NCBI RefSeq assembly: GCF_009931435.1
Contig: NZ_CP043415.1
Strand: one strand, 5' to 3'
DNA from: Escherichia coli
GTDB lineage: Bacteria > Pseudomonadota > Gammaproteobacteria > Enterobacterales > Enterobacteriaceae
Length of the DNA stretch: 64,000 nt
The position numbers were made by a program. Shown here one piece after another: positions 12,001-15,000 of this stretch. Position 1 is the stretch's first letter. The number at the start of each line of letters is the position of its first letter.

Positions 12001-15000
12001 CCGTAACGATACCGCCCGGCTGCCACCTGCCAGCGACTGAACCCCGGGCGAACCAGTTGTGCAACCGAAGCAAACGGCACGATAAAACTCCTGGTCTGTC
12101 CGTCTGACTCTGTCACAGTGACTGTCAGGTCACCACCATATCCACTGGGATAAAGGTCACTGATGGAGAAAGGCCCTGCCGGCACGGTAGTTTCATAAAT
12201 AATGTTACCGTTCTGCCGGACAGTGACCCTGGCGTTACTTCCGGCCATCCCCCGAACCACAGGGGCATAACCACGCAACGAACCCGGCAGCATCCGGTCA
12301 TCAGAAGCCAGTCTTATTCCCCTGAGGCTGTTACTGTCCATAAGCTCACCTGTGGTGGTGAAATCCCCCAGTGTCAGTTGCGCACGCAACATGGCTATGT
12401 CGTGCTGAAGGTTCGTTTCAATACTCCGGTAACCTTCTGCATGACCGTCACTCCAGCTTTCTGTCCCCCGGTGACGAAATGCCCAGCCTCCTGCGTTAAA
12501 GCCGGCACGAAGACCAAGATAACTCTGATTATTTTCCATATCGGGCGTCCGGTAACGCCAGTGATTCACGTCATAACTGACAAAGGCAGCCGGCACCCCC
12601 GTCTGCCACTGAGAAGGTGATATGTATCCCCGTGGACGGGAAACCAGCATGGCCTGCGGAATTTCAACATTCAGCCGCAGCAGTGACAGGTCAAAACGGA
12701 TTTTTGCATCAGGTACAGCTGCAGAAAATGGTATGCAACGGCCATTTCCGGTATCCGGTTCACGGGCAACGGCCTCGGGTGACACATCCAGAATGGATAA
12801 CAGTTCCGGCGTCACACACAGAACACTCTCCTCCTGTGAAGAGGACATATCACGGAATGACAATTCCGCATTTCCTTTCCATTCACCGTTCAGATAAATG
12901 TCTGAATAATAATTCCCTGAGGGAACAGGATTCCCGTGCGTGAAACGACGGACATCAATCACACTGCTCCCTGGCGTGCGGCTCAGAAAACTCGGGTCAA
13001 ATTCAGCATCCTCTGCCGCCCACAAAGGCACAGACAGCATATACAGTCCCGACAGACAACATAAATAAATGACACGGTACTTCAGACCGGATAAAAAATA
13101 ATGACTCACTTACGGGGCCCTTATTATTTCACAACGGATTCGCCTTTCTGGTAACCACCATTATCATTCACCACCGTCCATTCCACTTTTCCTGACGGAG
13201 AAACCTTCTGCTTAAGTCTGAAAGTGACAGAAGAAAACGGTGCGGCCATTCCCCCCTGAGTACTGCTGACTTTCTGAGCTCCCTGCCCGACACTGACAGT
13301 ACTGAAGGTAATAAAATAAGGCGTGGGATTACTGGCCTGAAGGGTATCACCGCCTGTAAGCTGCCATGTCACTTTCTTATATGCATCATCAGGAGAAAAA
13401 GGCAGACCATCAGGGCGGAAAAAAAACTTAATCCGGCTTCGTACGGCAAACTGAAGGTAATTATATCCCTGTGCTTTTTCAGATTTTCCGGCAAAAGAAG
13501 GTTTGGCCGGAATATCAAGAACATTCAGCCAGAACAGTGATTCCCTGTCTGCCGGAAGATTTTCTCCCGTATACATGATTCGCATTGTCTGTCCGGAAAG
13601 CGGCTCCACCCGGAAAACAGGAGGCGTAATAATAAACGGCACCCTGACAGAGTCAGGAGGGGAAGACGGGTCCCCTGTATCAAGCCATGCTTGTATCAGG
13701 GATGGCGTACTGTCTCCGTTATTCAGCCGGACATTAATACTTTTTTGTTCTGCAGGATAAATAACCCTGGTCCCCATAATAACCACACTGCCATATGAGG
13801 GCAGAGACAAAAGAACGGTAAAAATGAACAGCAGAATATGTTTCATACAGGCTCCGTAAACACGGGGCAAAATGCCCCGTGAACACTTAAGAAGGCAGGT
13901 ATTAAGATAAAAATTACTGATAAGCGATGGTGTAATTCACAGTGGCAGAAACGTTGCCGGCGGTGGCCGGACCTGTTGCATAGTACCGTGCGTTATAACG
14001 CAATGTCATTGCGTCATTATTAATAACAACAGGTGTTACTCCCTGAGTAGCAGAATCATTACCAAGTAGTATCTGTGTGGTACCATCAGCATTCAGAAGC
14101 TGAATCTGGACATTTGTTGCGTTACCAGAGCCACTACTTGAAATATTAAGGTTATGGCTATCATAATCAGTGGTCGCATTAGGCTCAAAATAAGCCTTCA
14201 CACTTTGAGCTCCTGTAGCGGCAGCAGTATTACACCCACTCAGTGAAATTGTGAAAGGAGTAAGGCCTGCTACCTTCCCGGTTGAATCTAATGATTTTGT
14301 GGAGACAGTTGGTAGTGTAACTGCCAAGGGAGCGGTTCCTGTAGTAACAGAACAAGTTTGATCAACGACTTTCCCAGTAAAATTAATTGTACCGTCATAA
14401 GCAAGCGTAGCAGAAGATGACGCAGCCGCCAGTATTCCAAGGATAAATTGAATTTTCTGCATAGAATCCTCAGTGAAAACTGATAAGAATATATCATGAA
14501 AACAGCAGCAATTAAGAATTTAACTTAATATATTAAGAGCAAATTTAATTGCTAATATACAAGATTACCCATAGTTAAAAAAACTTTCAAAACGCTAAAA
14601 ACGATCGATATTCAAAATTTGATAGGCAAAAACTATCAATCAACAAATTAACGATCGGCTGTAACGATCGATAAAATATATGAATAAACGTTGCCAAATA
14701 AAATAACACATCTGCAAAATAAAACTTTTTCATATTCAATAAATTAATTTCTATTTGTAACTATTACTTTTGATCATGTATGCGTTTTTAATCATAAATA
14801 ATGATAATTAGCTTAGTTGATTATATAAAGGCTGTTTAGCCTGTGTTTAAGTTTTCATTTTTGTGAATTAAATCACAAACAAGGTTTTTCTGCGAATATA
14901 AATATGAATAAAGTAAGATATATTATACGCATATTTTATGCAGGTTATTGTTATTACCAAAATTTTAAGTAAAAAAAACAACGTGTTAATCACTTTCTCC

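Follow-up and report, generated by a model that had tools for sequence, protein, structure and literature searches.

Upstream of the F17 fimbrial operon in a 64,000-nucleotide stretch of Escherichia coli DNA (NCBI RefSeq assembly GCF_009931435.1, contig NZ_CP043415.1; hereafter the window) lies a compact module of three GATC sites and a central palindrome. We consider this module to be probably an OxyR/Dam epigenetic switch of the gtr/opvAB type, placed upstream of the promoter of f17A, the major pilin gene. In bovine and ovine E. coli that cause septicaemia or diarrhoea, F17 fimbriae rank among the major adhesins; Ucl and Uca are their counterparts in human extraintestinal pathogenic E. coli (ExPEC) and in Proteus.

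Anatomy of the module upstream of f17A

On the plus strand the GATC sites start at 14603, 14653 and 14666, each within AACGATCG (14600, 14650 and 14663), and the palindrome TTGATAG-N7-CTATCAA occupies 14619-14639. Together they stand 141-207 bp 5' of the f17A ATG in an AT-rich tract (24.7% G+C across 14463-15000), which agrees with the first-pass annotation in its description of three such GATCs and this palindrome 140-210 bp upstream of f17A in AT-rich DNA. Read in the direction of f17A, the module runs ATC-GATCGTTACAGCCGATC-GTTAATTTGTTGATTG-ATAGTTTTTGCCTAT-CAAATTTTGAATATC-GATCGTTTTTAGCGTT-TTGAAA. Half-sites were scored as 15-mers over 10 positions against the OxyR dimer site ATAGnTnnnAnCTAT, and the promoter hexamers were placed by comparison with ucl, the homologous operon:

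14654..14668, minus strand: predicted distal OxyR half-site A, ATCGTTACAGCCGAT, scoring 7/10, of the form ATCG-N7-CGAT
14622..14636, minus strand: predicted central OxyR half-site B, ATAGTTTTTGCCTAT, scoring 9/10, of the form ATAG-N7-CTAT and free of GATC
14591..14605, minus strand: predicted proximal OxyR half-site C, ATCGTTTTTAGCGTT, scoring 7/10 and carrying GATC-3 (14603-14606)
14585..14590, minus strand: predicted -35 hexamer TTGAAA, abutting half-site C, taken from ucl and nearly invariant in F17 promoters
14562..14567, minus strand: predicted -10 hexamer TAATCT after a 17-bp spacer, a weak match placed by its spacing to TTGAAA and by analogy with ucl (TTGAAA-17-GATGAT)

Half-site A spans GATC-1 (14666-14669) and GATC-2 (14653-14656), which are 13 bp apart, and half-site B is the core of the palindrome; the gaps are 17 bp from A to B and 16 bp from B to C, and the GATC spacing is 13/50. 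The three half-sites fit the spacing of the extended (reduced-form) binding mode of OxyR, with 15-mers ~17 bp apart. A terminator-like hairpin at 14670-14652 was rejected as a terminator: it consists of the two self-complementary CGATCG of half-site A, has a 6-bp stem and lies 5' of the promoter.

The predicted hexamers put the f17A transcription start near 14555, and half-site C would then end at -36, abutting rather than overlapping the -35 box. An alternative promoter found by a consensus scan, TTAGCA-17-TATATT (14555-14527), was not preferred because 9 of the 16 other F17 promoters aligned below differ in its -35 hexamer; relative to ucl, it would also shift the module away from the start by ~35 bp.

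Taken by itself, the number of AACGATCG copies in the 64 kb is unremarkable, with 3 found and 1.5 expected, and 22 of 100 shuffles gave at least 3. The GATC triplet, in turn, is the tightest in the window; ~0.14 GATC would be expected in its span from local composition, and when the intergenic region was shuffled 5000 times with dinucleotides preserved, three GATCs came within 63 bp in only 18 cases. Both GATC-N9-GATC (the GATCs at 14666 and 14653) and the composite pattern GATC-N9-GATC-N14-17-ATAG-N7-CTAT-N12-17-GATC occur once in the window. Further dense GATC triplets are present at 47263 and 2067. Conservation, rather than such within-window statistics, is the strongest argument for the GATC element.

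Conservation and recurrence of the module

The F17 promoter is present in 36 of 5426 complete E. coli genomes. An alignment of 16 promoters drawn from these genomes with that of the window (17 sequences, 81-99.7% identity) was examined over the stretch that begins 10 bp before GATC-1 and includes the -35 box. The 20 core bases (the three GATC, ATAG and CTAT) were the same in every sequence, whereas 28 of the 75 others varied (Fisher p = 0.0006, a value that overstates independence since the promoters are related). GATC-1, GATC-2 and GATC-3 were all invariant, and half-site B had invariant arms around a spacer that varied at 3 of its 7 bases, as a site bound by a dimer should. Two independent insertions of the element IS1 were observed just 5' of the module in E. 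coli chromosomes, horse- and pig-derived (L014 ~401-470 and L016 ~401-440). Their ends lie ~50-70 bp beyond GATC-1 (window ~14700-14740) and leave everything from GATC-1 through the promoter intact, which therefore puts the upstream boundary of the module roughly ~50-70 bp beyond GATC-1.

The same module precedes three further operons, ucl, Proteus mirabilis uca and an F17-like operon of Salmonella diarizonae, all of which keep the order pilin-chaperone-usher-adhesin at 56-61% protein identity. The ucl operon of a sequence type 131 (ST131) strain was located via its usher gene; blastn (distant mode) queried with the F17 promoter did not retrieve the ucl promoter, and the DNA outside the module was likewise missed. 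The upstream region of ucl nevertheless contains the same three-part module, reading GATC-N9-GATC, 15 bp, ATAGGTGCAATCTAT, 15 bp, GATC, with an identical TTGAAA -35 box 12 bp past GATC-3 (GATC spacing 13/49; half-site gaps 16/16 compared to 17/16 in F17; 56-59% protein identity to the F17 operon). The other two relatives came from a pilin-alignment scan with one genome per species and showed GATC spacings of 13/51 in uca (half-site B 10/10, gaps 17/17) and 13/46 in S. diarizonae (half-site B 9/10). All three have a central ATAG-N7-CTAT, the central site scores 9-10/10 in all four lineages including F17, and the position of half-site C is filled in ucl and uca too. When the gtr module of phage P22 was added, the five-way alignment had invariant columns at GATC-1, GATC-2, ATAG and CTATCA.

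For ucl, the central half-site has an experimental counterpart. The ucl start site was mapped by rapid amplification of cDNA ends (5'-RACE) and an OxyR motif placed at -82..-66 (Hancock et al. 2022, PMC9236248); OxyR shifted the ucl promoter fragment in gel shift assays, and deletion of oxyR drastically reduced UclA. Expression rose with single-nucleotide polymorphisms (SNPs) that replace G by T at -78 and T by C at -76, and immunogold labelling found 79% of cells fimbriated in F11 vs 12% in F11 T-78G (PMC9236248). For this homologue it has thus been demonstrated that OxyR binds, that expression depends on OxyR and that populations contain both fimbriated and non-fimbriated cells (PMC9236248). 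The ucl equivalent of half-site B, GATAGGTGCAATCTATC, is the published OxyR site; mapped at -82..-66, it gives G at -78 and T at -76, matching the report (PMC9236248). The same mapping sets TTGAAA at -35..-30 and GATGAT at -12..-7, the textbook -35 and -10 positions, and half-site C at -50..-36 (centre -43) with GATC-3 centred at -49.5.

The composite pattern was also used to scan metagenomes, where at least 120 stretches carry it (loci L035-L154). Among the matches listed, 119 of 121 fall in four of the 24 allowed gap combinations, (15,15), (15,16), (16,15) and (16,16), and these matches are therefore not due to chance, with the geometry under selection in many loci. F17 (16,15) and ucl (15,15) both lie within the four common combinations, and the consensus of the matches listed has extra conserved bases in common with F17 (TGATAG..CTATCA, ATCGATCG). 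The genes downstream belong to at least 10 unrelated families, mostly unannotated small membrane proteins and lipoproteins. The scan suggests that the cassette is far commoner than its three or four textbook examples would indicate. In E. coli, ~245 of 5426 chromosomes have members of two of these families, which are annotated as 'hypothetical protein' and lie within mobilisable islands; WP_000369203.1 is one E. coli hypothetical protein whose gene carries the module.

Several of the linked products could be described. They include membrane proteins of 193-223 aa, a 91-aa zinc-ribbon membrane protein, a 188-aa lipoprotein, a YeeP-like GTPase and an EcpR/TviA-like regulator. The islands with the two families also carry relaxase genes and SEN1990/SEN1982-family neighbours (L155 6001-6441; L156 6001-6871).

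Comparison with known switches and alternative explanations

The layout of the F17 element is that of gtr. In P22 gtr, the GATCs at -110, -97, -46 and -33 are spaced 13/51/13 (Broadbent et al. 2010, PMC2909390), and the regulatory region reads A = ATCGGTAACAACGAT, gap 17, B = ATAGATAAAAACTAT, gap 17, C = ATCGCTTGTATCGAT. Both systems have three OxyR half-sites ~32 bp apart centre to centre, with gaps of 17/16 in F17 vs 17/17 in gtr and scores of 7/9/7 vs 8/10/8. In both, A has the form ATCG-N7-CGAT with a 13-bp GATC pair, B is near-perfect and GATC-free, and C bears a GATC beside the promoter; the spacing from GATC-1 to GATC-3 is 13/50 in F17 and 13/51 in gtr, and the flank CTATCAAATT is found in both. 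The ATCG-N7-CGAT form of A with its 13-bp GATC pair is also seen at agn43 GATC-II/III and in ucl and uca. The 13/50 spacing, which the first-pass annotation had rightly set apart from the ~102 bp of pap and called a variant, is the signature of a gtr-type OxyR/Dam switch. F17 differs in having no fourth GATC and a B-to-C gap 1 bp shorter, and in having fimbrial genes downstream where gtr has O-antigen glucosylation genes. In addition, half-site C of gtr (-45..-31) overlaps the -35 box and represses, whereas that of F17, by analogy with ucl, would end at -36 and abut it, so that occupancy of B+C in F17 need not repress.

The other two OxyR/Dam systems are arranged differently. opvAB has four half-sites with GATC spacings of 46/19/46 and is ON when OxyR occupies OBS-D (Cota et al. 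2015, PMC4856963); it lacks a 13-bp GATC pair, whereas F17 has three half-sites at 13/50. Its promoter-proximal part is nonetheless similar: a GATC-bearing 7/10 half-site is centred at -43, directly 5' of the -35 box, with its GATC (GATC4) at -49.5, and a consensus half-site with no embedded GATC lies 32 bp further upstream, centred at ~-75. These positions coincide with C and B in ucl and, by extension from ucl, would do so in F17. At agn43 (flu) there are three GATCs, two of them 13 bp apart (GATC-II/III) in ATCGTTTATATCGAT, and the 30 bp around F17 GATC-1/GATC-2 match those around GATC-II/III at ~25 of 30 positions, counted by eye; the GATC spacing of agn43 is 19/13 compared to 13/50 in F17. 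The agn43 GATCs reportedly all lie in one OxyR site downstream of the start, where OxyR is said to be purely a repressor (work of Wallecha and colleagues from 2002). The F17 module, in contrast, lies upstream of the predicted -35 box, and OxyR activates ucl. The F17 element is thus set apart from the agn43-type and opvAB-type arrangements.

By analogy with these systems, we infer that OxyR would bind at F17 as a methylation-sensitive activator of f17A. An OxyR tetramer would occupy either A+B or B+C, and the covered outer half-site would be shielded from Dam, which could then not reach GATC-1 and GATC-2 when A is bound, or GATC-3 when C is bound. Dam would methylate the outer half-site left free, and methylation would then disfavour OxyR binding there. 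The two methylation patterns would be mutually exclusive, each occupancy state would be inherited through replication, and the population would divide into F17-ON lineages and F17-OFF lineages, with infrequent switching between the two. The 79% vs 12% of fimbriated cells in the ucl variants is suggestive of such heritable ON/OFF expression. Regarding polarity, position relative to the promoter favours B+C as the ON state, with GATC-3 unmethylated, because the centre of C at -43 and its GATC at -49.5 are as in opvAB OBS-D, which is occupied when ON; analogy with gtr favours A+B. If RNA polymerase stabilised OxyR only in B+C, B+C as the ON state could explain why a weaker shared half-site B raises the ON fraction.

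Several observations weigh against a switch. First, half-site C has one GATC where gtr has two: the position 13 bp downstream of GATC-3 reads GTTT and no second GATC is present in half-site C, with ucl and uca likewise having one. Second, A and C score 7/10 only, a value often reached in AT-rich DNA (280 bp contain five windows scoring at least 7). Precedent, on the other hand, favours the switch: the GATC-bearing half-sites of opvAB and gtr also score only 7-8/10, and SNPs in OxyR sites alter ON/OFF proportions there. Third, GATC-3 of S. diarizonae (L022 5790-5860) lies 4 bp nearer B (46 vs 50); since B and the -35 box remain 32 bp apart (31 in F17 and ucl), this GATC falls in the gap, outside the C arm. 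Fourth, no such module was found upstream of a third E. coli F17-like operon (L018 1280-1830, ECamp083), which has the gene order of F17 and a pilin 57% identical to F17A, so that regulation within the F17 family is not uniform. Fifth, the ucl data were read by their authors as simple activation, and phase variation was not reported (PMC9236248). The relatedness of the F17 promoters, mentioned above, belongs here as well. The module was also absent upstream of distant pilin relatives (one genome per species, mostly from genera outside Enterobacterales, but also from Erwinia, Pantoea and Phaseolibacter), which are therefore uninformative on its origin.

The most serious alternative, though an unlikely one, is that OxyR bound at B, with weak flanking contacts, activates f17A with no heritable switch. 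The GATCs would then be incidental to ATCG/CGAT arms resembling ATAG/CTAT, or would transiently modulate affinity after replication. The ucl study explains its data by activation alone, with no colony-level switching (PMC9236248), and the single GATC in C and the 7/10 scores of A and C are compatible with this account. Under plain activation, however, the arms should drift to ATAG/CTAT, yet none of the three GATCs varies among the F17 promoters, ucl, uca and S. diarizonae retain them too, and the 13-bp GATC pair is a device also used by agn43 and gtr. The proportions of fimbriated cells in ucl point to a mixed population rather than graded expression. Moreover, the ucl allele with the weaker B (T at -78) expresses more, and the authors invoke missing cofactors (PMC9236248).

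It is improbable that another methylation-sensitive regulator accounts for the element, for example SeqA acting at the GATC pair or a second LysR-type factor such as HdfR, the regulator of Salmonella std. T-N11-A palindromes are generic LysR-type boxes, binding of HdfR at std is blocked by GATC methylation (PMC6735912), and SeqA is accessory at opvAB (PMC4856963). Against this, the central site fits the OxyR consensus at 9-10/10 in all four lineages, and OxyR has been demonstrated for the ucl homologue (PMC9236248).

The first-pass annotation had read the clustered GATCs as a Dam/Lrp switch of the pap type; the resemblance to Dam-dependent phase variation stands, while Lrp as the partner and membership of the pap family do not. 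The pap-type hallmark is two GATC boxes ~102 bp apart together with a PapI-like co-regulator (summarised in PMC2909390), and a version with variant spacing, in which Lrp and a PapI-like cofactor move between two GATC-containing sets of sites, is very improbable here. As in the pap family (pap, sfa, daa, fae, clp and pef), GATCs of a fimbrial promoter are likely shielded from Dam by a bound regulator, and clustered GATCs in an AT-rich fimbrial promoter are where Lrp could bind. A fourth GATC at 14772 even lies 106 bp from GATC-1 (14666), but it is not conserved among F17 promoters, being lost in L003 and L015, and is thereby ruled out as a pap-like partner. Unlike the pap family, F17 has spacings of 13 and 50 bp instead of the ~102-bp pair of GATC boxes, and the annotation of a 99.4%-identical plasmid, which covers window 1-32.9 kb, has neither a papI-like nor a papB-like gene there, close to f17A or elsewhere. 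The palindrome is an OxyR half-site motif and not an Lrp site, and the layout matches OxyR modules base for base and in register. Finally, a chance cluster without function, with which the unremarkable count of AACGATCG agrees, is effectively refuted by the conservation data, given the rarity of the clustering in shuffles, the invariance of the core bases, and the recurrence of the layout in three further lineages and at least 120 metagenomic stretches with constrained geometry.

Genomic setting and implications for F17-family fimbriae

The operon downstream of the module spans 9539-14462 in the order f17A-chaperone-usher-f17G. Its genes were taken from a list of open reading frames and from the annotation by the Prokaryotic Genome Annotation Pipeline (PGAP) of a plasmid 99.4% identical to window 1-32859, on which the operon is labelled 'F17A fimbrial adhesin', chaperone, usher and 'F17G fimbrial adhesin':

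13914-14462, minus strand: f17A, major pilin gene and first gene of the operon, ATG at 14462
13124-13870, minus-strand operon: chaperone gene, 3' of f17A
10572-13109, minus-strand operon: usher gene
9539-10570, minus-strand operon: f17G, the F17G adhesin gene, last in the operon

Window 33000-57900 matches Vir-type plasmids with cnf2, cdtB (type III/V) and hlyC. Because of these matches and the f17 genes, the window is part of a necrotoxigenic E. coli (NTEC-2; CNF2/F17, Vir-type) virulence plasmid of bovine-type E. coli. Upstream of f17A, the annotation of the 99.4%-identical plasmid has only a potE fragment, a rarD fragment and insertion sequence (IS) elements. The potE pseudogene fragment 5' of f17A and the rarD fragment occur in both the window and the near-identical plasmid (window 15190-15478 and 16214-16942), and the potE fragment accompanies the F17 operon in 13 of 16 sampled plasmid and chromosomal copies. 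This frequent association suggests a single capture of the F17 island, at a chromosomal location close to potE. Further along, at window 19866-26052, an autotransporter O-heptosyltransferase gene precedes a 4.9-kb gene for an AIDA-like autotransporter; the latter gene contains internal tandem repeats, seen as self-matches offset by ~110 bp between 22134 and 24084.

The kind of switch proposed here is known from agn43, gtr and opvAB, and its occurrence before chaperone-usher fimbriae appears to be new. In the full-text literature searched, mostly outside subscription journals, no link of F17, Ucl or Uca to Dam, GATC, phase variation or epigenetic switching was found, and the ST131 methylome paper lists no under-methylated loci. 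The ucl study is silent on GATC, Dam and phase variation and invokes cofactors that it did not identify (PMC9236248). We hold the following joint proposition to be evenly poised between true and false: that F17, Ucl and Uca (E. coli, Proteus and Salmonella diarizonae) are the first chaperone-usher fimbriae under an OxyR/Dam phase switch; that the cassette is a widespread, portable ON/OFF module before at least 10 unrelated, uncharacterised membrane or surface gene families in enterobacterial mobile islands; and that Dam methylation is the 'missing cofactor' behind the ucl SNPs that tune ExPEC gut colonisation.

If the proposal is true, a heritable switch would explain mixed fimbriated and non-fimbriated populations, and it would explain how single ucl promoter SNPs alter both the share of cells that bear fimbriae and the extent to which the gut is colonised, and why the ucl study had to invoke cofactors (PMC9236248). 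The prediction for F17 makes the open question of Ucl regulation directly testable. It would also be relevant to vaccines and diagnostics directed at F17A, because some cells would be antigen-negative at any time. More broadly, OxyR/Dam switching would extend beyond O-antigen modification and Ag43 to chaperone-usher fimbriae.

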